Positions 4,151-64,000 of a stretch of DNA of 64,000 bases are shown here, in pieces. The notes below the pieces were generated by a model. That model worked only from the letters and a program-made list of their open reading frames with translations, did no database searches and was not told the origin of the DNA. A program made the translations under genes and the position numbers. The DNA is from Mobula hypostoma. Taxonomy: Eukaryota. Position 1 is the stretch's first letter. Each line of letters begins with the position of its first letter. The DNA is taken from NCBI RefSeq assembly GCF_963921235.1, contig NC_086097.1, forward strand, positions 135,348,001 to 135,412,000. The letters run 5' to 3'.

Positions 4151-4736
4151 TGGGTTACAACAATTAGTTGACATATTAGAAATGAGCTAAGGGGTTAAAA
4201 ATTTAAAACCAATGGGCTTATTGTCATAATGAAATTTTTACATTGAAAACTGGCAGGACAATAAATTCAAGCAACACACATAAAAGTTGCTGGCGAACGC
4301 AGGGTTTTCGTCAGGGTCTGGGCCTGAAACGTCGACTGCACCTCTTCCTAGAGATGCTGCCTGGCCTGCTGCGTTCACCAGCAACTTTTATGTGTGTTGC
4401 TTGAATTTCCAGCACCTGCAGAATTCCTGTTGAGGGCAATAAAATGTTAAGCAAGGCTGGTAGATATTAAATACTGGATCATAGGACTCTCATATCAGAA
4501 CCTGCCTAAGCAATTAGTGTTTAAATTTCTGTCTCATCTATCCAGATGCCTTTTTAATAATACATTTTATCAATTCTACTTCTTCTTAGAATTAGCAACT
4601 CAATTACATCAGACAATTGCTTCAGAATCACACAATACAGTATATACAAAAAAGGGCATTGCTGAAGGACACTAAATGTTTTTAAATGTATTTGTAAAAT
4701 AGTTACATCTGAAGAAAAAGCAATTTTAAAACACAC

Positions 4737-19879: not shown

Positions 19880-22350
19880 TAGATGCAACACATACACATA
19901 ATGCTGGAAGAACTCAGCAGTTCAGGCAATATCTATGGAAAAGAGTACAGTTGACTTTTCAGGTCGAGACCTTCATCAAGACTGGAGAAAAAAAGATGAG
20001 GAGTCAGAGTAGAAGGTGGGCAGAGGGGAGGGAGAAGCACAAGGGGATAGGTAAAACCAGGAGGGGGAGGAGTGAAGTAAAGAGCTGGGAAGTTGATTGG
20101 TGAAAGAGACACAGGGCTGGAGAAGGGGAATCTGAGAGGGGAGAAGGCCATGGAAGAAAGAAAAGGGGGAGGAGCACCAGATATAGGTAAAGGGCAAGTA
20201 AGGAGATAAAGGTGAGAGTGGGGAATGGGAATGGGGAATGGGGAATGGTGAAGGGGAGGGGCAGGAGGGCATTACCGGACGTTTGAGAAATCAATGTTCA
20301 TGCCATCAGGTTGGAGGCTACCCAGATGGAATAAGCTGTTGCTCCTCCAACCTGAGTGTGGCCTCATCACGACAGTGGAGGAGGCCATGGACTGACATGT
20401 CGGAATGGGAATGGGAAGTGGAATTAAAATGGGTGGCCACTGGAAGATCCCGCTTTATCTGGCGGATGGAGTGTAGGTGCTTGGCAAAGCAGTCTCCCAG
20501 TCTGTCAGGTCTCACTGATATAGAGGAGGCCACACTGAGAGCAGTGGATACAGTAGATGCCTCTGACTGACTCACAGGTGATGTGTTGCCTCACCTGGAA
20601 GGACTGTTTGGGAGCCTGAGTGGTAGTGAGGGAGGAGGTATAGGGGCAGGTGTAGCACTGTTCCACTTGCAAGTATATGTGTCAGGAGGGAAATCAGTGC
20701 GGAGGGACGAATGGACAAGGGCATCGTGTAGAAAGCAATCCCTGCGGAAAGCAGAATATTGGGGGGGAGGGACAAGTGTGCTTGGTGGTGGGATTCCACT
20801 GGAGATGGTGGAAGTTATGGAGAATTATGCGCGGGATGTGGAGGATGGTGGGGTGGAAGGTGAGGACAAAAGGAACCCTATCCCAGGTAGGGTAGCAAAA
20901 GGAATAGGGTAAGGGCAGACGTGCGTGAAATGGAGGAGATGCGGTTGAGGGCAGCATTGAAGAAGGGAAGCCCTTTTCTTTGGAGGAGGAGGACATCTCC
21001 TTAATTCTGGACTGCAAAGCCCATCCTGAGAGCAGATGCAGTTGGGACAAAGGAATTGAGAGAAGGGGATGGCTGTTTTACAAGTAACAGGATGAGAAGA
21101 GGTATAGTCCAGGTAGCTGTGAAAGTCAGTGGGTTTATAATAGACATCAGTAGATATGCTGTCTCCAGAGACAAAAATAGAAACAGAGAGGTCGAGAAAG
21201 GGGAGGGAGGTGTCAGAAATGGACCAGGTAAATTTAAGGGTAGGGTGGAAGTTGGAGGTAAAGTTGATAAGGTCGATGAACTCTGCATGGGTGCAGGAAG
21301 TAGCACCATTGCAATCAATGATGTAGCGTAGCAAAAGTTGGGGAGTGATACAAATGTAGGGTTGGAACACAGACTGTTCCATGCAGCCGACAAAAAGGCA
21401 GGTATAGCTGGGACCCGTGTGAGTGCCCATGGCTAAACCTCTTGTTTAAAAGAAGTGGGAGGAGCCAAAGAAGAAATTATTGAGAGTGAGGACAAGTTCC
21501 GCCAGACAGAGGAGAGTGGTGGAGGGGAGCTGGTTGGGTCTGGTGTCCAGAAAGAAATGGCCTTCCTGATGGGGGATGGTGGTATATAGAGACGGGACAT
21601 CCTTAGTGAAAATAAAATGATCAGGGCAAGGGAACTTGAAATCATCGAAAAGATCAAGAGCTTGTGAAGTGTCATGGATGTAATTAGGAAGGGACTGAAT
21701 TGGGGGGGGAGGGGAGAAGATAAAACTGAGTCAAGGTATGCAGATACAAGTTCAGTGGGACAGGAACAAGCAGAAACAATGGGTCTACCTGGACAGGCAG
21801 GTTTGTGGATATTGGGTACGAGGTAGAAACAGAAGGTGTGGGGGTGAGGGAACTATGAGGTTGGTATCAGTGGATGGGAGATTCCCAGAGTTAATAAGGT
21901 CAGTGATGGTGTGAGAGACAATGGCCTGGTGCTCCTTAGTGGGGTCTCGTTTGATGGGTAAGAGGAGGTGTCTGAGAGTTGGCGCTGGGCCTCAGCAAGG
22001 TAGAGGCCAGTCTATCAGACTATTACAGCAGCCCCCTTATCTGTGGAGAGGTCAGGATTAGTGCGGAAAGTGAAGAGCAGCGAGTTCAGACGGATTGAGG
22101 TTGGAATTGGAGAGAAGGGTGGTGAAGTCAAGACGGTTGATGTCCCGTCAGCAATTACCAATGAAAAGATCCACAGCAGGCAGAAGACTAGAGTGGGGTG
22201 TCCAGGAAGAGGAGGAGGGTTGAAGATGGGAGAAGGGGTCATCAGTACGGCGTGGAGAGTCCTTGCCACAGTAGTGGGCAGGAGGCAGAGGCAGCAGAAG
22301 AAGAGCTCAGCGTCATGGCAGGCATGGAACTTACTGAGGTGTGGAATACA
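19880..22350 (-). mobile_element. Penelope-like element (RT + GIY-YIG endonuclease), degraded
   Basis: MGTHTGPSYTCLFVG, LRYIID, LPFLDLSV, DVYYKPTD..SYL (PLE RT); RLGDCFAKH...PVATHFN (GIY-YIG region); terminal repeat with a decayed hammerhead at 19949-19983. Confidence 0.88.
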
Positions 22351-24844: not shown

Positions 24845-26069
24845 ACACACATAAAAAAAATGCTGGTGAACGCAGGAGGCCAGGTAACATCTATAAGAAG
24901 AGGTACAATTGACGTTTCGGGCCGAGACCCTTCGTCAGGACTAACTGAAAGAACAGACAGTAAGAGATTTGAAAGTGGGAGGGGGAGGTGGAGATCCTAA
25001 ATGATAGGAGAAGACAGGAGGGGGAGGGATGGAGCCAAGAGCTGGAAAGTTGATTGGCAAAAGGGATATGAGAGGATCATGGGACGGGAGGCTGAGGGAG
25101 AAAGAAAGGGGGGGAAGCCCAAAGGATGGGCAAGGAGTATAGTGAGAGAGACAGAGGGAGAAAAAGGAGAGGGAGAGAAGAAAATTAATAATAATAATAA
25201 ATAAATAAATAACGGATGGGGTACGAAGTGGGGTGGGGCATTAAAGGAAGTTAGAGAAGTCAATGTTCATGCCATCAGGTTGGAGGCTATCCAGACGGAA
25301 TATAAGGTCTGGAATATAAATTCTTCCAACCTGAGTGTGGCTTCATCTTGACAGTAGAGGAGGCCATGGATAGACATATCAGAATGGGAATGGGACGTGG
25401 AATTAAAATGTGTGGCCACTGGGAGATCCTGCTTTCTCTGGTGGACAGAGCGTAGGTGTTCAGCGAAACGGTCTGCCAGTCTGCGTCGGGTCTCGCCAAT
25501 ATATAGAAGGCCACATCGGGAGCACCGGACACAGTATATCACCCCAGCCGACTCCCAGGTGAAGTGTCGCCTCACCTGGAAGGACTATCTGGGGCCCTGA
25601 ATGGTGGTGAGGGAGGAAGTGTAAGGGCATGTGTAGCACATGTTCCGCTTACAAGGATAAGTGCCGGGAGGGAGATCGGTGGGAAGGGATGGTGGGGGGG
25701 GGGGGGAAACGAATGGACAAGGGAGTCGTGTAGGGAGCGATCCCTGCAGAAAGCAGTGGGGGAGGTAGAGGGAAAGATGTGCTTAGTGGTGGGATCCCCA
25801 GATAGTCCTTCCAGGTGAGGTGACAATGCACCTGGGAGTCGGCTGGGGTGATATACTGCGTCCAGTGCTCCCGATGCGGCCTTCTATATATTGGCGAGAC
25901 CCGACACAGACTGGGAGACCGTTTCGCTGAACACCTACGCTCTGTCCGCCAGAGAAAGCAGGATTTCCCAGTGGCCACACATTTTAATTCCACGTCCCAT
26001 TCCCATTCTGATATGTCTATCCACGGCCTCCTCTACTGTCAAGATGAAGCCACACTCAGGTTGGAAGAA
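24845..26069 (-). mobile_element. Penelope-like element 3' part with an inverted duplicate of the GIY-YIG region
   Basis: GVIYCVRCSRCGLLYIGETRRRLADRFAEH on minus (25267-25575) and again on plus (from 25848); terminal repeat at about 24845-24950. Confidence 0.9.
24907..24942 (-). ncRNA. Minimal hammerhead motif, core intact, helix I weakened
   Basis: AGUC-CUGACGA-AGGGUCUCGGCCC-GAAA-CGUC-AAUU in the PLE terminal repeat. Confidence 0.6.
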
Positions 26070-26399
26070 CTAGCACTGAGCTTTGCTGAGTTTGGATCCT
26101 ACAATCACAATGATCTGTTAAAACATATAAAAGGTGCCTCACAGACACAAAGCTCAATGACGGCATGGATATCACTTGAAGAAGTTTTAAGGTACATATG
26201 ATAGGGGTAAGAAGGATCAATAGAGTGATTTAGGGAATGGATTTCAGAACTCAAGAGCCTTGGTAGCTGAAGGTACAGCTGCCTGTGATGGGGCAATGAC
26301 ACTTAAGTTGTATGAGAGGATAGAATATATTACTATCAGTGCACATTGCCCAATTTTTTTCTTCAAATACCGGTAAATAAAATACATCAAGTAACTTAC

Positions 26400-37900: not shown

Positions 37901-38876
37901 GTTTTGGTTTTGTGCTACCTTGATATACTTATGATCTGTCTCAATGACATGCAAACAGAAGCTTTTCACTGTATCTCCTATTACCGTTTGAAGTTTAAGG
38001 TCGAAAACACACACCAGTCCACCGAGAGGTCAGTGGCAGATAGTGAAAGCAGCTTCAGTTTTCTGGGGTCTCGGCCTGAAACGTCGACTGCGCCTCTTCC
38101 TATAGATGCTGCTTGGCCTGCTGCGTTCACCAGCAACTTTGATGTATGTTGCTTCAGTTTTCTGGGCATCGACATCTCAGGGGATCTATCCTGGGCCCAA
38201 CATCTGTTTCTCTACTTCTTTAGGCCTTTGAGAAGGTTTGGTGTGTCACCAAAGTTATAAATTTCGAGAGACAGTGGAAAACATTCTAACTGGTTGCATT
38301 GCTTCCATTTATACCATGCATTGGTTCATATGGAGTCCCTAATGCATGGGCACAATCTTCCCAGCCACTGAGGACGTCTTCACAAGGCAATGGCTCACGA
38401 AGGTAGTGTCCATTATTAAGGACCCTCACCATCTGGGACATGCCCTCTTTGCATTATTAATATCCAGGACCCACACTCAACTTTTTAACAACTTCTTCCC
38501 CTCTCCGGTCAATGTTCTGAATGGTCCATGAACACCAAATAATTATTTGACTTTCTTTTAAACTATTATAACTTGCTTTTATAACTTAGAATAAAGGTTA
38601 TGTATTGTCCTGTACAGTACTGGTACCGCAAACAAGTTTTGCTGCATTTATCAGTACTAATCTGATTTTGAGCTTATTGTCATATGCACCGGTACAGTGA
38701 AAAGCTTACTTGCAGTAACATCAGAGACACATAGCATCATATAACCAGCACTGCCAGAAAAAATAAATATTGAACACAACTTTTACAATTCATGCGTACT
38801 GAAAACGCAGTTTTGGAAGATATAGGAGCATGTCAATCATCCGTTGCTATGCTGCTGCCCTCTAACCTGGGTGTGC

Positions 38877-38940: not shown

Positions 38941-39099
38941 ATGGCGGACAGCGGACTGGGCGAGTGGTACCGCGGCATCCCCCCGGTCACCCGCTACTGG
39001 TTTACAGGCTGCGTAGCGCTGCCGGTGTTGGAACGGCTCAACGTGGTGAGCGGCAGGTCCCTGATCCTGTGGTCGGAACCCTTTTTCAACAACTTCCAG
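38941..39099 (+). CDS. DERL1: Derlin-1 coding exon 1
   Basis: gcggcgATGG Kozak context; MADSGLGEWYRGIPPVTRYWF...WSEPFFNNFQ resembles the DERL1 N-terminus; CAG|gtacgg; CpG island; head-to-head with TBC1D31 as in human. Confidence 0.92.
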
Positions 39100-43312: not shown

Positions 43313-43725
43313 CAATTTTGCTGGTTGGATCAACAAGAACTGAATCTTTGAATGGAAATCGTTCTTCTTGAACCTGGTGGTGTGGGGCTTCAGGCTTTTG
43401 TATCTCCTGCCCAGTGGCAGGCCCTCATGGTGGGGAGTTTTGAAAGGGGTTACTAGAATGGGTTGTGGACCCAATCTTTTTCCCTAATTTATCAGTTTAT
43501 AGTCTAGCTGATTTATTGCCCTCCATCAATTTGATTAACTTGGAACAAATTGGAAATTGTTGGTCTATCTCATGCAGGGGTTTCCAGCTTGGCGTCATGG
43601 ACCCTTTGCTTAATGGCATTGGTTCATGGTATTTAAAAAGTTGGGATCCCCTGATCTAGTGTGACCTTTTGTAATTGATGGGCACTGCAAAATATTTTGA
43701 ATACTGAGAATTATAATAACAAGAG

Positions 43726-43971
43726 ACACACATCAAAGTTGCTGGTGAACACAGCAGGCCAGGCAGCATCTCTAGGAAGAGGTACAGTCGACGTTTCAGG
43801 CCGAGACCCTTCGTCAGGACTAACTGAAGGAAGAGTTAGTCCTGACAAAGGGTCTCGGCCTGAAACGTCGACTGTACCTCTTCCTAGAGATGCTGCCTGG
43901 CCTGCTGCGTTCACCAGCAACTTTGATGTGTGTTGCTTGAATTTCCAGCATCTGCAGAATTCCTGTTGTTT
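43726..43971. mobile_element. Palindromic Penelope-derived mini-element
   Basis: 100-bp arms (43726-43825, 43834-43933) with 2 mismatches and an 8-nt spacer, plus the same tail; no clear TSD. Confidence 0.9.
43786..43821 (-). ncRNA. Minimal type I hammerhead ribozyme motif, intact
   Basis: Identical 36-nt motif to 63781-63816. Confidence 0.8.
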
Positions 43972-44834
43972 ACAATATCTTATTTGCATTGATTTTTATT
44001 GGTGTTACTTAAAACGGGATGTGAGGTGCTACTTTCTGCCTCGAGAATGATTGAATTTCTTTGGCAGCACTTGTGCGTCTTTCACATCAATTGCATCTTT
44101 ATCTCAAAAGGGATGCTTAAGAATATATTTTTCGATGCAACTGAGAAACTTGGCAATGTAATTATGAACAGCAAGCTCCTACAAAGAGCAACACAATGGT
44201 GAATCATCCACTTTTGGCTTTGAAATAGTATCATGGGATTTTTTTTTACATACAGGGTGTTTTAATATTTCATTTGCAAGACAATACTTTTGACTAATGA
44301 CAATGTGGAATCTGGGGCTGTGCTTTCTTTAATTAAAATAAATCTGTTCCACTTTTAAATGCAAGTTAGTTTTCTCAGAACTTTCTAATCATTAGAAAAG
44401 TACTGTGCAATGAATTTGCATGCTGCCATTTCCCCAAATGACTCCTCCCACATCAATGGGGAGAGAGATTAAAATGGTGACTGCTAGCATTGTTTCTAGT
44501 TTTTTTTGAAGCACTTACTGAAGTACTTATGAAGAATTTGAAACTGACACATAATGTAAATGTACTAAAGGGTGATTTTAAAAAGAACAATTCACATCTA
44601 CATCCTCATGAATGATGGGGGAAAGGTTATATAGTTTGTAGTCAATGTACATTCATCTTTGTATTTGTATATTAAAATATACCTAAGATTGTACAACAAT
44701 GCAATTGTTAACTTCAGAGTTAAATCAAATCTACAAGAGGATTTTTTTAAAACATTGAAGCTATTCAGAACATAGCCATTGTACAAGATTGTACAACAAT
44801 CAACACAGGCACAGTTCAAATGTTTTCTATATAT

Positions 44835-47264: not shown

Positions 47265-49600
47265 CCCAGGTTCATTACATAACACCCAATTCAGTATAGC
47301 TGGTCCCCTAGTATGCTCAACGTCACACTGCTCTAAAAAGCTATCTCTTGTGCATTCAACAAACTCACTTTCATGAGATCCATTACCAACCAGCCTTTCT
47401 CAATCAATCTGCACGTTAAAATCTCCCACGACTACCATAGCATTGCTCTTTTGACTTGCCTTTTCTATTTCCTGTTGTAACCTGTGGTCCACCTCCCAGC
47501 CAGTGTTGGGAGGCCTGTATATAACTGCCATCAACGTCCTTTTACCCTTGCAGTTTCTTAACTCAACCCACGGAGATTCAACATCTTCGGATCCTATGTC
47601 ACATCTTTCTACTGATTTGATGGCATTCTTAACCAGTAGAGCCACACCAGCTCCTCTGCCTACCTTCCTATCTCTCCAATATAACATGTAACCTTGGACA
47701 TTCAGCTCCCAACTACAACCATCCTTCAGCCATGATTCAGTGATGGCCACAACAGCATACCTGGCAATCTGTAATATCGCAACAAGATCATCTACCTTAT
47801 TTCTTATACTACGTGCATTTAGATACAACACCTTGAGTACTGTATTTGCTATCCTTTCTAACTCTGCATCCGATTGATTTGATACTCAGCCTGTTGGCTG
47901 CAACTAAGTCCATCACCTGCCTGCCCTTGCTGACAATCTGACTACATGCTATCTACTCTTTTACCATCCGTTCTTTCCTAAGTCCCTTCCCTCTGGTTCC
48001 CACCTCCCTGCCAAGTTAGTTTAAACCGTCCCCAACAACTCTTAACAAACCTGCCCGCGAGAATATTGGTCTCAGTTGGGTTCATGTGCAGCCACTTTTG
48101 TGTCACTTTTGAACAGACCATACCTCCCCCAGAAGAGATCCCAATTATCCAAGAACCTGAAGCTCTGTCCCCTGCACCAGCTTCTCAGCCACGCATTTAT
48201 CTGCCAAATCATCTTGTTTCTACCCTCACTGGTTCATGGCATGGGTAGCAATCCAGAAATTACTACCTGGGAGGTCCTGCTTCTCAGCTTTCTACCTGGC
48301 TCTCTAAATTCTCTTTTTGGCACCTCATCGCTTTCACTTCCTGTGTCATTGGTACCAATATGTACTGAGACATTTGGCTGCTCCCCTTCCCTCTCCAAAG
48401 TGTTGTGGACATGATCTGAGATATCCCTGACCCTGGCAGCTGTGAGGCGACATATCATCCGACTGTCCTGTTCACATCCACATAATCCCTGTCTGTTCCC
48501 CTCACTATCGTTCCTTTCCTCTCTCTCTTTCCCTTCTGCACGATGGTCCCATGCTTCGTGCCTGTAACCTGGTCGCCGTGGCATTCTCCGGGGAGGTCAT
48601 CCCCCACCAATAGTATCTAAAGCGGTATACTTATTTTTGAGGGGAATGGCCACAGGGGTGCTCTGCTCTAACTGCCTTTTTCCATTTCTCCTGACGGTCA
48701 CCCAGCTACTCGCCTCCGGCAACTTCGGAGTGATTACTTCCCTGTAACTTTGATCAATTATATCCTCGCTCTCCCGTACAAGCTGAAGGTCATCCAGTTG
48801 CTGCTCCAGATCCATAACACAGTCTTCAAGGAACTGCAGCTAGATGCACTTCATGCAGATCTAGTTCCCTGAGAGACTCTGGGTCTCCCAGTTCTCCAAC
48901 ATCTGGCACGAAGAGCACATCACAGCCATTTAAATGGTACAGTAAGAAAGGGGGAGAAAATCTGAAAAGGAAACCTTAGCACGCAAACACGAGGAAATCT
49001 GCAGATGCTGGAATTTCAAGCAACTCCTCTCCCTTCTCCAGCCTCATATCCCTTTGCCAATCAACTTTCCAGCTCTTAGCTCCATCCCTCCCGCTCCTAT
49101 CATTTCGGATCTCCCCCTCCCCCTCCCACTTTCAAATCTCTTACTATCTTCTTTCAGTTAGTCCTGACGAAGGGTTTCAGCCCAAAACGTCGACTGTACC
49201 TCTTCCTATAGGTGCTGCCTGGCCTGCTGCATTCACCAGCATTTTTTGTGTGTGTTGCAGGAAACCTTAACAGATGCTTTACACAGAGCCGATGCCTCTA
49301 CCAAGCTGAAGCCTGGTTTGAGCCAAAGCCTGTCACTTCTACTCTTGCTACTGGCCTACTCCGGACAATGGCCACTCTGCTTATCCCTTCTGTACTTTTT
49401 AGTTCGTAGAGCTCTTTATTGGCCACTAATAGGCCACGTACAATGGACAAACACTCTCGAAGCCCCCTTCTTAAATAACCGCTGCTGACCTGTGCGAAAT
49501 CCCTCTTGGGAGAGCTCTGTTGACGCTGCTGATAGGCCACGGACAATGGACAAACACTATCTAAGCTCCCTTTTTAAATAGCTGCCGCTGATCTGCGAGG
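47265..49600 (-). mobile_element. CR1 LINE 5' half (5'UTR with ~103-bp tandem duplication, ORF1, endonuclease start)
   Basis: VHIGTND (ORF1 esterase); YLNARSIRNK...VAITESWL...YRPP...GDFN; tandem copies start near 49429 and 49532. Confidence 0.82.
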
Positions 49601-50097: not shown

Positions 50098-53000
50098 GGG
50101 CGGGGGGTGGTGGGAGGGGCTTCATGTTTTAATTTGTTTCTCTTTGGGCTATATACATTATTGAAGTACTGGTTGCGTCCTTTTCCCCGGTATCTTTTGT
50201 ATGTTCTGTTTCCTCTCCGGGTTTGTGGGTCGCGCCTATCGTCAATCCTCCTTGTTGTGGGTTGACTTTAGGATTTATGGAGTCTATTATTAATTTTGTC
50301 TCCTGGAATACTAATGGTCTTAATCATCCTATTAAAAGGAAAAAAGTTTTTAAAGTGTTCCGGAGACTTAAAGCACAAATTTTATTTTTACAAGAGACCC
50401 ATGTACGGAGGGGGGACAGACTACATTTTTTCAAATTCTGGAAGGGACAACAATTTCATTCGAACTCCAATGCTAAGATTCGAGGCGTCTCTATTTTTAT
50501 AGATTCCTCAGTTACTTTTACACAACAGGATATTATCTCTGATCCGAATGGTAGATTTTTATTGGTTAGTGGTTTACTATTTAATAAAAAAGTAGTTTTG
50601 GTTAATGTTTATGCTCCTAATATGGATTGTCCGGAATTTTATAAATCATTGTTTGATCAGTTTCCGAATTTGAACGAGTTTTCATTGATTTGGGGCGGAG
50701 ATCTTAATACCTGTTTGTCTCCAGCTTTGGACCGTTCGGCTCCTTTACGGACTTTACCTAATAAATCTGCAAATCTGATTAATTTTTTCCTTTCTGATTC
50801 TGGGTCGACGGACATTTGGCGTTTTCTGCATCCTCAGGAAAAAGATTTTTCCTTCTTTTCACATGTTCATCATTCCTATTCAAGAATTGATTATTTTTTC
50901 ATTGATTCTCGTCTCATTCCTTCAGTGATTAAATGTGATTATGATTCTATAACCATTTCGGATCATGCTCCACTTAAGCTTTCTATTAAAATTATGGCCA
51001 ATATACCAAACAATAGACAATGGCGTTTTAATTCGCTGTTGCTTCAGGACTCGGACTTTGTTAATTTTATGAATGAACAGATTGAGCTTTTTTTTACAAT
51101 TAACCATACAGAAGATATTTCGGTTAACACTCTTTGGGACACTTTTAAAGCCTATATTCGGGGTCAGATTATTTCATATTCCGTTGCTTTGAGGAAGAAA
51201 CAGAAGCAGGAGGAGATGGCAATTGTGGACAAGATTAAAGAAATTGATAAGAAATATGTTATGGCTCCTTCTGAGGAGTTATACAAACAAAGAACTGAAC
51301 TTCAAATGGAACACAGTTTACTACTCTCGTCCTCGATTGTAAACCAATTAAAGAAAACAAGAAGTGACTTTTATGTTCACAGTGATAAAATTGGCAAGCT
51401 GCTGGCTAATCAATTGAAATCTAATTATGTTAAATCTCAAATCAATCAGATTTATAACCAAAATGATCGATTGATATTGGATCATGTGGGGATTAATCAA
51501 ACCTTTTGTGATTTTTATTCTTCTTTATATCAATCAGAGTCTCCTCGAGATTCTAAATATATGAATGATTTTTTAGATAAGTTAGACTTCCCTCAGATTT
51601 CACAGGATATGTCTTCTTTATTAGATACTTCCATTACAATGGATGAGATTAAGAATGTTATTTTTTCTATGAATCTGGGGAAAGCTCCTGGCCCTGATGG
51701 GTTTACCGTTGAATTTTATAAATGTTTTGCTTCTTTATTGATTCCTTGGCTCTATAAGGTTTTTGAGGCTTCTTTGAAACTTGGTAAACTTCCGGAATCT
51801 TTTAATAGAGCATCAATTTCTCTAATACTAAAGAAGGATAAAGACCCTGCTCAATGTGCATCTTATAGACCAATATCTTTATTAAATGTTGATTCTAAAG
51901 TTTTTTCTAAGTTATTAGCAAATAGACTAGAAAAAGTACTTCCTTCTATTATTTCGGAAGACCAAACGGGTTTTATTAAAGGTCGTTACTCTTTTTATAA
52001 TATTCGTACATTGTTAAATATCGTTTATACTCCCTCACAAAATGTTCCTGAGTGTGTTATTTCTTTAGATGCCGAGAAAGCTTTTGATAGAGTAGAATGG
52101 CCTTATTTATTTAAGGTGCTTGAAATGTTTAATTTTAGCTTGAAATTTATATCCTGGATTAAACTGTTATATCACTCCCCTGTAGCCTCGGTTCGTACTA
52201 ACTCTTTAAACTCACCTTTTTTTCCTCTCTTTCGTGGTACTCGACAAGGCTGTCCTCTTAGTCCCCTATTATTTGATATTGCATTAGAACCTCTTGCAAT
52301 TGCTATTCGAGAATCTTCAAATATTACTGGGATAACTCGGGGATTAAAGTCCCATAAATTATCACTCTATGCTGATGATTTACTTTTATATATTTCTAAT
52401 CCTGAGAGATCCATTCCTGCTGTTTTAGAGTTATTAGCACAATTTGGTCTTTTCTCAGGTTATAAATTAAATCTTAGTAAGAGTGAACTTTTTCCGATTA
52501 ATAAACATCTTCCCTTATATTATAAATTTCCATTTAAATTGATTAATAATTACTTTTCATATCTTGGGATTAAAATTACTTGTAAACATAAAGATTTATT
52601 TAAGACTAACTTTTTACCATTAATAGACCATATTACTCAACTTTCATCTAAATGGTTTCCCTTATATTTAACTTTGATTGGTCGTATTAATGCAGTTAAG
52701 ATGTTTTTTTTGCCAAAATTTTTATATGTGTTTCAGGCATTACCAATTTTCGTTCCTAAATCTTTTTTTGATAAAGTTGACTCTAAAATTTCTTCATTTA
52801 TTTGGCAGAATAAGAATCCGAGACTGGGTAAAATACATTTACAGAAAGCTAAGAGAGATGGAGGTTTAGCATTACCTAACTTTAGATTTTATTATTGGGC
52901 TATTAATATTCGACATATGAAATTTTGGTTACTTGACCAGGACATACTATCTATTCCTAAATGGGTAGCATTGGAATTACAATCTGTTCAGGGTTATACA

Positions 53001-54412
53001 CTTGGTTCTATTTTAGGTTCCTCTCTTCCTTTTGATTCGAAACGTCTTAAGCAGGTCTCTAACCCTATAGTTAAATATGCTTTGCGCATTTGGTTTCAAT
53101 TCAGAAAATTTTTTGATCTTAATCAATTCGGGTTAGCGATTCCTATTTTAGGTAACATATTTTTTCCTCCCTCTTTTACGGATCGCGCTTTTCAAACTTG
53201 GAAGACTAAGGGTATTTTACGGTTTTTGGATTTATTTTTAGATGGTTCCCTTATGTCTTTTGAACAATTATCTAATAAATATAACTTATCAAGAATACAT
53301 TTTTTTAGATATTTACAAGTTAGAAATTTCCTAAGTACTATACTTTCTTCTTTTCCAATGCTTCCTCCTATATATATTTTAGATTCGATAATTAACCTTA
53401 ATCCATGTCAGAAAGGTGCATCGGCTATGATTTATAATATTATTATGAAACTTAGGAAAGCTCCATTTGATAAGATTAGGGTAGATTGGGAACAGGAATT
53501 GGGGCTTACCATTTCTGTGGATGATTGGGGGCAGATTTTACAATTAGTTAATACTTCCTCTATTTGTGCTAAACATTCCCTAATTCAATTTAAAGTGGTT
53601 CATAGAGCACATATGTCCAAAGATAAGTTAGCGCATTTTTACTCGCATATTAATCCTTTCTGTGATAGATGTTCGGGGCAGATAGCCTCTTTAACTCATA
53701 TGTTTTGGTCTTGCCCTACTTTGGAAACTTTTTGCAGAGATATTTTCAATATTATTTCTAAGGTATTAAATATAGATATCTCTCCTCACCCTATTACTGC
53801 TATCTTTGGACTACCTAAAATTTCTAGTAATCTTTCCCCTTCAGCCCGTAGAATGATTGCATTTCTTACTTTAATGGCGAAAAGATGTATTTTACAACAT
53901 TGGAAAGAGCTTAATGCTCCAACTACCTTTTTTTGGTTTTCTCAGACGATTTTATGTTTGAATTTGGAGAAAATTAGAAGTAACCTTTATGATTCTTCAT
54001 TTAAATTTGAACAGATTTGGGGACCTTTTATTCGATATTTTCATTTAATGTAATATTTACCCTTCTTGTTTTTTTTTCACTGTTTTTAATGGAGGTCGGG
54101 ATTGAGGACATGATTTTAAGTTTAACTCTGTTTGGTTTCAAGTTAGCCCATTGCTTTGCCTTCCTTTTAGTTAGCTGCACGGTGGGTTTTTTTTTGGGGT
54201 TTTTTTTTTCTTTTTTTTCCATTGATATATATAAAATTTAGTATACTATTATGTTATCTTGGTTTCTTATGCTTAAATTACATTGTTTGTAGTATTTTCT
54301 TTTTGGTATTGTTATCTTTTGGAATTTTATTATACTTTAACATTGTATTAATGTTTATATGGCTTACCTTTTTTGTATACTTACTCAATAAAAAGATTTA
54401 AAAAGAAAGAAA
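50098..54412 (+). mobile_element. L1-clade LINE, 5'-truncated (no ORF1), young insertion in DERL1 intron 1
   Basis: Perfect 14-bp TSD GGAATCACATTTTA (50084-50097, 54413-54426); AATAAA at 54387-54392; A-rich tail; intact ORF2. Confidence 0.95.
50277..54053 (+). CDS. L1 ORF2p: APE endonuclease + reverse transcriptase + C-terminal CCHC motif (1258 aa from ATG 50277)
   Basis: SWNTNGL, FLQETH, GGDLN, SRIDY, SDH (APE); KAPGPDG, YRPISLLN, DAEKAFD, GTRQGCPLSPLLF, YADD, YLGI (RT); CDRC...HMFWSC; no stops or frameshifts. Confidence 0.95.
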   Translation: MESIINFVSWNTNGLNHPIKRKKVFKVFRRLKAQILFLQETHVRRGDRLHFFKFWKGQQFHSNSNAKIRGVSIFIDSSVTFTQQDIISDPNGRFLLVSGLLFNKKVVLVNVYAPNMDCPEFYKSLFDQFPNLNEFSLIWGGDLNTCLSPALDRSAPLRTLPNKSANLINFFLSDSGSTDIWRFLHPQEKDFSFFSHVHHSYSRIDYFFIDSRLIPSVIKCDYDSITISDHAPLKLSIKIMANIPNNRQWRFNSLLLQDSDFVNFMNEQIELFFTINHTEDISVNTLWDTFKAYIRGQIISYSVALRKKQKQEEMAIVDKIKEIDKKYVMAPSEELYKQRTELQMEHSLLLSSSIVNQLKKTRSDFYVHSDKIGKLLANQLKSNYVKSQINQIYNQNDRLILDHVGINQTFCDFYSSLYQSESPRDSKYMNDFLDKLDFPQISQDMSSLLDTSITMDEIKNVIFSMNLGKAPGPDGFTVEFYKCFASLLIPWLYKVFEASLKLGKLPESFNRASISLILKKDKDPAQCASYRPISLLNVDSKVFSKLLANRLEKVLPSIISEDQTGFIKGRYSFYNIRTLLNIVYTPSQNVPECVISLDAEKAFDRVEWPYLFKVLEMFNFSLKFISWIKLLYHSPVASVRTNSLNSPFFPLFRGTRQGCPLSPLLFDIALEPLAIAIRESSNITGITRGLKSHKLSLYADDLLLYISNPERSIPAVLELLAQFGLFSGYKLNLSKSELFPINKHLPLYYKFPFKLINNYFSYLGIKITCKHKDLFKTNFLPLIDHITQLSSKWFPLYLTLIGRINAVKMFFLPKFLYVFQALPIFVPKSFFDKVDSKISSFIWQNKNPRLGKIHLQKAKRDGGLALPNFRFYYWAINIRHMKFWLLDQDILSIPKWVALELQSVQGYTLGSILGSSLPFDSKRLKQVSNPIVKYALRIWFQFRKFFDLNQFGLAIPILGNIFFPPSFTDRAFQTWKTKGILRFLDLFLDGSLMSFEQLSNKYNLSRIHFFRYLQVRNFLSTILSSFPMLPPIYILDSIINLNPCQKGASAMIYNIIMKLRKAPFDKIRVDWEQELGLTISVDDWGQILQLVNTSSICAKHSLIQFKVVHRAHMSKDKLAHFYSHINPFCDRCSGQIASLTHMFWSCPTLETFCRDIFNIISKVLNIDISPHPITAIFGLPKISSNLSPSARRMIAFLTLMAKRCILQHWKELNAPTTFFWFSQTILCLNLEKIRSNLYDSSFKFEQIWGPFIRYFHLM

Positions 54413-57049: not shown

Positions 57050-57640
57050 TGCTGAAACACGAGAGTTTGCAAATGCTGGAAATCTGGAGCAATACACAAA
57101 ATACTAGAGGAGCTCAGCAAGTCAGGCAGCATATATGGGAGGGAATATATAGTCAAGGTGGGGGGAGGGGAAGGAGTACAAGCTGGCAGGTGATAAGTGA
57201 CACACACAAAATGCTGGTGGAACGCAGCAGGCCAGACAGCATCCATAGGAAAAAACAAAGTTGACGTTTCGGGTTGAGTCCCTTCGTCAGGACTGAATTT
57301 CTGGCATCTGCAGATTTCCTCATGTTTGAGGTGATAAGTGAAACCAGGTGAGGGGGAGGGGATGAAGTAAGAAACTGGGAGTGATAAGTGTTAGAGGTAA
57401 AGAGCTGAAGGAGGAATCTAAAAGGAGAGGGCAGTGCAGTAGAAGAAAGGGAAGGAGGAGGAGCACTCGAGGGAGGAGATGGGCAGGTGAAGAGAAGGAG
57501 TGAGAAAGAAACTAAAATGGGAATTGAAAAGGTGGGGGGAGATGTTACTGGATGCTGGTGAAATTGTTCATGCTATCAGGTTGTAGGCTATACGGACAAT
57601 GAGATTTTGATCTTCCAACATGAGTATGGCATCATCAGGT
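57050..57640 (-). mobile_element. Old Penelope-like 3' remnant hosting a younger PLE mini-insertion
   Basis: Similar to 19880-20380; nested insert 57201-57328 with a 13-bp TSD. Confidence 0.72.
57259..57294 (-). ncRNA. Minimal hammerhead motif, core intact, one helix I mismatch
   Basis: AGUC-CUGACGA-AGGGACUCAACCC-GAAA-CGUC-AACU. Confidence 0.65.
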
Positions 57641-58233: not shown

Positions 58234-58333
58234 ATATGGAGACCCGTGACAGCATCCCTGTTTTACCCTATGGGATTCCATTATTTGATTCAGTTGTACT
58301 TCCTGTATTCATATTCCACCAGCTTGGAAAGAG
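58234..58333 (+). CDS. DERL1: Derlin-1 coding exon 2 (WR motif)
   Basis: cag|ATA TGG AGA...G|gtagga; IWRPVTASLFYPMGFHYLIQLYFLYSYSTSLERG; 100 nt. Confidence 0.93.
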
Positions 58334-61687: not shown

Positions 61688-61752
61688 GATTCTTTGATGG
61701 GAGGACAGCCGACTATATATTTATGTTGTTTTTCAACTGGATTTGCACAGTG
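61688..61752 (+). CDS. DERL1: Derlin-1 coding exon 3
   Basis: tag|GA...GTG|gtatcctttt; FFDGRTADYIFMLFFNWICTV; 65 nt. Confidence 0.95.
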
Positions 61753-62963: not shown

Positions 62964-62990
62964 ATTGTTGCATTACTCATTGGAATGCCT
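62964..62990 (+). CDS. DERL1: Derlin-1 coding exon 4 (27-nt microexon); gene continues beyond window
   Basis: cag|ATTGTTGCATTACTCATTGGAATGCCT|gtaagt = IVALLIGMP; phase 0/0; same length and position as human ITGLAMDMQ. Confidence 0.85.
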
Positions 62991-63719
62991 GTAAGTATTT
63001 TTGGAGGGTTAGGGTGCAGTGTGCTTCAGAACAGAATCATTTCTATCTTTGTGTTAATAGAAAACCTGGCTGTTCAGGATATTTTCTGTTATTGCACAAG
63101 TAGTGAAGAGTAAGAGGTAGTGCTGGAAGGGAAGAGAGAAAGTGGAGATGGTAATGATTCACTTTTGTACCCAATACCAGCCAGAGTTAATTAAAGCACA
63201 AAATGAACAAATAGTTGATTTCTGTTAGTAAGGAAGAAGTTTTGTTTTAGGATACTTGGCATGAGATGAGCCCTCTTTTCAATTTCACTATAGTTGGTAA
63301 AGCCTTCATTGATGGTAGTTTCAAATCCTTGACACCTTTCCTAACTCTGCATCTCTTGCTGTCCATGAAAATTTGCTCAGTTCTCTAGTAGCCCAGCTGT
63401 CTTGTGCTTTTCCAATTTCCTTCCTTAGAACAGTACAATGCTGGAACGAGCCCTATTGTGCTGAACTAATTAAAATAGTAATCAAATGGCCAACTAGCCT
63501 AATCCCTTCTTCTAACACAATGTCCATATCCTATCTGCGCCATTGTGCCGGCTACCATGCTCCTTCCTGGTTGCGACATCTACCTTCCTCTCAATCCCTT
63601 TACTTTCTGACCTGGTGCTCTGGTTCCTATCTCACCCCCCCCCTCCCTTGACCACCCCCCCCCCCAATCGAACTAGTTTAAACACTCCCAAGTGGTACAA
63701 GCCAACCTCCTAGCCAGGA

Positions 63720-63945
63720 AACATACATCAAAGTTGCTGGTGAACGCAGCAGGCCAAGCAGCATCTATAGGAAGAGGCGCAGTCGACGTTTCAGGCCGAG
63801 ACCCTTCGTCAGGACTGACGAAGGGTCTCGGCCTGAAACGTCGACTGCGCCTCTTCCTATAGATGCTGCTTGGCCTGCTGCGTTCACCAGCAACTTTGAT
63901 GTATGTTGCTTGAATTTCCAGCATCTGCAGAATTCCTGTTGTTTG
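63720..63945. mobile_element. Palindromic Penelope-derived mini-element
   Basis: Perfect 93-bp inverted arms (63720-63812, 63815-63907) plus a 38-nt tail; 14-bp TSD CCTCCTAGCCAGGA (63706-63719, 63946-63959). Confidence 0.93.
63781..63816 (-). ncRNA. Minimal type I hammerhead ribozyme motif (PLE-associated), intact
   Basis: AGUC-CUGACGA-AGG(GUCUCGG)CCU-GAAA-CG-UC^GACU: helix I AGUC/GACU, full core, helix II, palindromic ACGU in place of helix III. Confidence 0.8.
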
Positions 63946-64000
63946 CCTCCTAGCCAGGATATCATTTCCCCTCCAGTTAAAGTCCCACCTGTTGCTTTTG

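Follow-up and report, generated by a model that had tools for sequence, protein, structure and literature searches.

The stretch of Mobula hypostoma DNA analysed here, called the window throughout, is 64 kb long and carries on its + strand a Derlin-1-like gene, within intron 4 of which the insert under study lies. Exon 1 resembles Derlin-1 (E 9e-12), Pfam DER1 matches occur on the + strand on both sides of the insert, and exons of 159, 100, 65 and 27 nt share one reading frame; the next exon of the gene falls outside the window. The insert starts 730 nt after the end of exon 4, so that the placement given by the sequence-only reading, about 730 nt downstream of a DERL1 microexon, is borne out by this exon and by the DER1 matches. 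The features are listed below, with parent-element positions numbered such that the C of CUGACGA is +1 and the base preceding it is 0.

38941-39099, + strand: exon of the Derlin-1-like gene, 159 nt
58234-58333, + strand: exon of the same gene, 100 nt
61688-61752, + strand: exon of the same gene, 65 nt
62964-62990, + strand: exon 4 of the same gene, 27 nt, in frame
63706..63719, no strand: TSD, left copy, 14 bp, CCTCCTAGCCAGGA
63720..63812, - strand: left arm, pLTR +93 to +1, stopping at the proximal start site, without tail
63780..63817, - strand: complete minimal type I hammerhead motif, cut predicted after 63785, predicted to be buried in the 93-bp duplex
63813..63814, - strand: spacer GA, 2 nt, parent positions 0 and -1 of the left arm
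63815..63847, + strand: hammerhead core with no usable helix I 5' strand, on the host pre-mRNA strand
63815..63907, + strand: right arm, pLTR +1 to +93
63908..63945, + strand: tail of the Penelope-like element (PLE), +94 to +131, stopping at the distal start site
63946..63959, no strand: TSD, right copy, 14 bp, CCTCCTAGCCAGGA

Intron 1 of the same gene contains, in sense orientation at window 50133-54053 (+ strand), an unbroken stop-to-stop frame of 1,306 aa that we take to resemble a LINE-1-type ORF2. Two more Derlin-family genes are found in G000:C71, around 53.6 Mb and 55.6 Mb.

The insert is folded back on itself, with two perfect 93-bp arms (93/93) about a GA spacer, a 38-nt tail and a 14-bp TSD; the 226-bp anatomy first described for it proved exact on re-reading. 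The two nucleotides beyond the spacer are common to both arms, a microhomology. Its predicted fold has an energy of -201.6 kcal/mol (z = -26), equalled in stability by 0 of 200 shuffles. Short-read contigs from one organism contain both insert junctions, each with 23-24 nt of element, and a second short-read sample contains the right junction only, with 20 nt of element; these overlaps are shorter than the 31-letter bridging threshold, and the palindrome is spanned by no short-read contig. No joint skipping the entire insert occurred among the 15 listed of 328 in the short-read contigs.

The description of the hammerhead given earlier holds in most respects. The minus strand carries the core CUGACGA...GAAA-CGUC with five of five pairs in helix I, as claimed for a type I minimal motif, and the plus strand does lack the 5' strand of helix I, forming three of five pairs with the two that adjoin the core broken. 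The full minimal type I pattern (CUGANGA/GAAA/UH, helices I and II, palindromic helix III) is present on the minus strand and in the parent pLTR and absent from the plus strand. For helix II the motif stands and the proposed AGG/CCU register does not: both a folding program and the published consensus prefer G9.U20/G10-C19/G11-C18/U12.G17, with A8 unpaired. A descriptor search for minimal hammerheads, suggested as a check, returned 239 matches in 1.06 Mb, 196 of them from the insert's own PLE family, and an Rfam scan of the insert found no hammerhead family, only non-specific miRNA-hairpin matches under gathering scores. Among the motif classes listed, which cover 196 motifs of one family, changes in helices I and II are one-sided only, with no double change. 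Position +20 is U in 167 of the 196 motifs (the young subfamily) and C in older copies; the U produces a G.U wobble closing helix II where G10.1-C11.1 is expected, possibly a sign of relaxed selection on the ribozyme.

Folding predictions for the full insert give helices I and II a pairing probability of about 0 on either strand, with a penalty of about 63 kcal/mol if they are imposed. According to the accessible text of PMC4209133, minimal hammerheads cleave weakly and not as monomers; published results on Xenopus minimal hammerhead dimers, to the extent that they are accessible, have eight of nine without cleavage. Because helices I and II are predicted to be essentially unformed, the host-sense strand lacks helix I and published cleavage is weak, a working ribozyme at this locus is unlikely, and the proposal that the insertion delivers one is not sustained.

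The arms belong to a very large family. A 25-mer derived from them has 68,737 exact matches in the 3.48-Gb genome, about one per 50 kb, and an older variant of the 25-mer has 14,978. At position-ordered loci many arms continue upstream into a 3' UTR and then into an ORF that resembles RT and GIY-YIG. Locus L176 has the complete pLTR-ORF-pLTR arrangement, a unit of 3,512 nt and an ATG at +167; tandem or partial-tandem pLTR structure with a unit of about 3,512 nt is present both there and in L291. Exact leader-ATG junctions number 381. Five of 20 leader-ATG loci fetched have an open frame of 1,014-1,016 aa, three of these without internal shifts, and the frames bear DKG, YIDD and GVIY..YIG motifs. 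For a partial copy, Pfam RVT_1 (E 6e-6) and GIY-YIG (E 0.001) both match more weakly than the curated cut-offs. The RT-EN linker includes CKRNKCYTC near residue 883, a CX4CX2C arrangement and thus an instance of the CX2-5CxxC motif, which the accessible text of PMC8557442 gives as common to Neptune and Nematis.

Compared with the pLTRs of L291, L303 and L308, all open-ORF copies, the insert arm shows 0-1 differences in 93 positions. From this near-identity and from the RT/GIY-YIG ORF, the insert is recognised, on sequence grounds, as the pLTR, the end that bears the hammerhead, of an EN+ Penelope-like element that is young and very abundant and probably of Neptune type, judging from the linker motif and the vertebrate host. 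The Penelope origin and the existence of a young family with an autonomous partner, both proposed from the letters of the insert, are thereby supported. Of the two grounds for calling the insert itself very young, the near-identity of its arm to open-ORF copies stands, and the absence of differences between its arms is weak, because differences within pairs average only 128 in 5,830 sites.

Other copies of the family lie in the window. A second hairpin, at 43720-43973, has an older haplotype, a 24-nt centre and its tail on the right arm. Short copies at 4263-4432, 38066-38154, 48981-49258 and 57212-57328 comprise head-to-head pairs with unequal arms and one tail-less single. Older broken copies with RT and GIY-YIG remnants occupy 20256-22344 and 24861-26070, the second being a head-to-head pair. 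Elsewhere, L295 and L307 have in common an internal duplication (unit about 809-1014) that marks an older sub-lineage.

Head-to-head pairs follow simple rules. Exactly one arm carries the tail in 58 of 59 scorable pairs from two position-ordered sets: 28/28 in the first (25 distal plus proximal, three distal plus shorter) and 30 of 31 scorable among the 32 pairs of the second, which used a different anchor. The same holds for 40/40 centre-anchored loci and for 3/3 pairs in the 64-kb window. The exceptions are L279, with two tails and no TSD of at least 12 nt, and the long copy L176, which is tail-less. A TSD of at least 12 nt, mostly 13-16, surrounds 35/37 paired arms in the first set and 38/43 in the second, counts in which a pair seen from both arms enters twice. 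Most of the sampled loci lie within the first 23 Mb of a single contig, and arm ends, taken from BLAST, are uncertain by a few nt, more so at the quasi-palindromic centre; set aside were one internal duplication, the repeated parses of L176 and L189, L193 as an old short pair, and the unscorable L266.

Arms of a pair also agree with each other in sequence and extent. Diagnostic sites differ within 84 pairs in 29 of 425 cases, against 44% in 2,000 shuffles (minimum 33%). Variants found in two arms only, scored in 14 long pairs, were shared within the same insertion at 40 of 15,040 sites versus 19 of 378,982 between insertions. Among 76 pairs, a count for which de-duplication was approximate, 46 were short-short in their stopping points, 26 long-long and four mixed, whereas about 35 mixed would be expected were the arms independent. 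Both arms would thus seem to derive from one source, and one RNA molecule or two RNAs of one locus fit equally.

These regularities bear on the possibility that the two arms represent separate insertions, conversion between neighbors, or an assembly artefact. The family is dense, at about one 25-mer match per 50 kb; inverted repeats are able to convert; and no short-read contig crosses the palindrome. Yet a single TSD surrounds both arms and the one-tail rule holds, and an artefact would have to account for well over a thousand head-to-head cases, with distinct centres among those listed, and for both junctions of the insert in short-read contigs. We regard explanations of this kind as scarcely credible.

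Is the hairpin, then, inherited as a unit? The earlier reading took the palindrome to be a mini-retroelement, and in that case a master hairpin would be transcribed and moved whole. The insert's own 28-nt centre does have 216 exact copies in the genome, the 30 best-matching copies (chosen for similarity) are 98-100% identical and mostly have a 13-15-bp TSD, and a class of short templates does seem to exist. Against this, head-to-head pairs with centres of 0-30 nt total 1,712, although the search anchors for this figure and for the 216 differ by 2 nt per side, and the centres are very varied among the 50 listed. Of the first 30 exact-centre loci, 19 carry the tail on the right arm, ten carry it on the left and one is complex; such loci are spread over several subfamily haplotypes with the arms concordant; and their left ends vary, coinciding with the proximal site that is also the 3' end of single arms. 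The variety of centres, the occurrence of the tail on both sides and the several haplotypes mean that a single master hairpin cannot account for the pairs, and we judge a palindromic non-autonomous mini-element very improbable. A fixed-unit element of SINE- or MITE-like kind was rejected because none of centre, ends, tail side and subfamily background is constant, and the claim of a palindrome moving as a unit falls for the same reasons. It is likely instead that every insertion builds its hairpin afresh, out of two copies of one RNA end set back to back.

Stops at -5..+8 occur at 23.7 and 22.6 per 1,000 nt at risk in the two sets, compared with about 1-2 per 1,000 upstream of -32, and the cluster is seen in unpaired arms as well. 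Of 194 arms sampled, 113 (about 60%) are short arms stopping near the hammerhead, most of them at its 5' edge and not at the cut site, +28/+29. Ribozyme cleavage as the source of these 5' ends was considered and rejected, since +21..+30 has 2.7 and 8.8 stops per 1,000 nt in the two sets, as against about 23 at -5..+8; in the second set four of the eight stops in +21..+30 fall at +21, beside a subfamily mismatch with the reference. Pairs with centres near the cut site (50 listed of 594) are no proof of cleavage either, because many are joined via shared GAC or GTCGAC. No spliced first exon was found ahead of the stop cluster among 70 contexts listed. For the short class, an RNA beginning at the 5' edge of the hammerhead fits the coupling of stops best; a block to RT or a snap-back of the cDNA are possible alternatives.

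We propose that a two-armed insert of the PLE end probably arises when the two strands of a staggered cut both prime RT on one source RNA and the resulting cDNAs are joined. An endonuclease, probably as a dimer, would nick both target strands about 13-16 nt apart; priming would take place at the distal site (about +130) for one target 3' end and at the proximal site (about +95) for the other. Both cDNAs would extend toward the 5' end of the source RNA; in the short class this end is probably situated a short way upstream of the hammerhead. The cDNA ends would then be joined through microhomology or a few added bases, and fill-in would leave a hairpin with its TSD. At 63720-63945 the left cDNA would have reached -1 to -3, with 2 nt common with the right arm. 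The hairpin would be a by-product of such an event, and the hammerhead a passenger predicted not to fold.

Parts of this scheme have a biochemical counterpart in the accessible text of PMC11167929. There both target strands are cleaved and extended by the anole PLE protein, which initiates internally at two sites bounding the tail, is predicted to be a dimer and does not require hammerhead cleavage; the ray and anole elements fall in different PLE clades. That work, the only in vitro PLE study in the accessible literature, ends at first-strand products. Neither the rule of one distal and one proximal arm nor double priming by PLEs is stated in the literature searched, as far as it was accessible; older reviews, the primary Penelope biochemistry and supplements (Figs S1-S2 of PMC11167929) may anticipate them.

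The shared variants and coupled stops fit equally well with a fold-back process and therefore do not discriminate between it and double priming. In a fold-back, cDNA primed at the tail would snap back near the hammerhead and copy itself, the endonuclease would resolve the product at about +95, and later central deletions would make the arms unequal. It predicts that the arms are identical, that they share private variants and that their ends are coupled; the quasi-palindrome of the parent, spanning about -12 to +9, suits it; and self-priming with EN-mediated resolution has been suggested for PLEs, as given in the accessible text of PMC3846280 and PMC8557442. Only longer tail-less arms, tail-less singles with a TSD and added bases separate the two models. 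In the first set (n=31) the tail-less arm reaches further 5' in 13 pairs and the tailed arm in 11, with seven equal; in the second (n=32) the figures are 16, 11 and five. The inequality is 0.5-1.8 kb in several pairs, with the tail-less arm sometimes longer by more than 1 kb, and some tailed arms measure merely about 45-55 nt, so that a fold-back needs extra deletions. It also leaves unexplained the tail-less single copies with their own TSD (8/14). Finally, 11 of 28 centres contain 1-25 extra bases, which end joining would be expected to leave. On this evidence we think fold-back unlikely, and double priming is the reading retained below.

The class of element behind the insert is known, and the insert is one of its usual products; it does not represent a new mini-element, and an active ribozyme is unlikely. 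As described in the accessible parts of PMC3846280, PMC8557442 and PMC2377424, Adineta Pen2a_Av and D. virilis Penelope likewise form pLTR-ORF-pLTR partial tandems. EN+ PLEs, in the accessible text of PMC3846280 and PMC8557442, carry at the 5' end a truncated copy in inverted orientation, with a TSD enclosing the whole unit and a tail of 30-40 nt at one end only, as in the ray. The ray element differs in its TSD, mostly 13-16 bp against 8-10 in Adineta Pen2a_Av (PMC3846280), and, relative to what is accessible on EN+ PLEs, in the share of sampled arms that are short and end near the hammerhead (113/194) and in that the one-tail rule, the concordance of arms and the coupling of stops are here counted on tens of pairs. 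Poseidon PAc of Anolis, as far as the accessible text of PMC11167929 describes it, resembles the ray element in having two tail-bounding start sites internal to the RNA 3' end and a hammerhead upstream of them whose cleavage is apparently dispensable; the ray element is unlike PAc in that the ATG (+167) comes after the hammerhead and both start sites, and in its CX4CX2C linker. The two-strand priming seen in vitro is not tied to head-to-head copies in the accessible text of that study. Metazoan PLE hammerheads, from the accessible text of PMC4209133, share with the ray motif the core, an extra nucleotide before helix II, ACGU for helix III and a 5-bp helix I, and in Schistosoma opposite-strand hammerhead pairs occur 100-700 bp apart; unlike them, the young ray subfamily has G.U at G10.1-C11.1, and the motif in the insert is buried or incomplete.

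LINE-1 twin priming yields an inverted upstream segment. It resembles the proposed double priming in that a second priming occurs at the target and two cDNAs are joined by microhomology (accessible text of PMC10760644); it differs in that both ray arms copy one stretch, starting at two fixed sites separated by 35 nt, so that a palindrome results. With tens of thousands of young copies, the family offers a genomic test of how the inverted ends and one-sided tails of PLEs form: each pair of arms records its insertion event, and the record is predicted to consist of one distal and one proximal arm, of one source, with a shared stop point. The genome is meanwhile being seeded with long perfect hairpins, many of them probably in introns.

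Partial tandems give a further view of the templates. In nine of them the exit from the ORF lies between +239 and +348 and re-entry is upstream, in four cases at -5 to -22. Apart from the arrays described below, partial tandems with exits in this range are found at L292, L297, L300, L299, L114, L266, L298 and L302. The exits suggest template RNAs ending 70-180 nt into the ORF, and so hint that such RNAs share a 3' end region. A broader scheme can be advanced tentatively, with the balance of probability somewhat against it. PLE integration would be obligatory double priming, with one RNA and two fixed start sites, one per strand; short hairpins would come from a pLTR RNA running from about -5/-25 to +240/+350, whose 5' edge would be a splice acceptor or start abutting helix I, and which would sometimes be back-spliced to a 310-nt circle founding retrozyme-like arrays. 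If true, obligatory double priming together with the short RNA would provide a single origin for PLE inverted ends, tails and retrozymes.

Non-LTR retrozymes, as the accessible text of 10.64898/2026.07.22.740005 describes them, are like the insert non-coding, pLTR-derived and equipped with a type I hammerhead; they are head-to-tail tandems, whereas the insert is head-to-head. Assignment of the insert to the non-LTR retrozymes was accordingly rejected: its arms are head-to-head and it contains no head-to-tail hammerhead tandem. Head-to-tail retrozyme-like arrays of a 310-nt unit (-5 to +304) do occur at two other loci, L290:3974-5236 (G000:C2) and L314:1502-1963 (G000:C50), which differ from each other at two subfamily-diagnostic sites. 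Their +304/-5 junction, the sole junction within the 0-25-nt gap searched, has six occurrences at these two loci on different contigs. Directly upstream of -5 stand a pyrimidine tract and then CAG, which make the place a candidate splice acceptor, and in one ORF variant the other side of the junction coincides with a GT donor, the arrangement expected of a back-spliced circle. In D. virilis Penelope an intron ends at helix I, according to the accessible text of PMC4209133. A back-spliced 310-nt circle is a plausible founder of the arrays, judged from the sequence of two loci. GT directly follows +304 in 11 of 20 ORF copies counted, some of them from overlapping loci.
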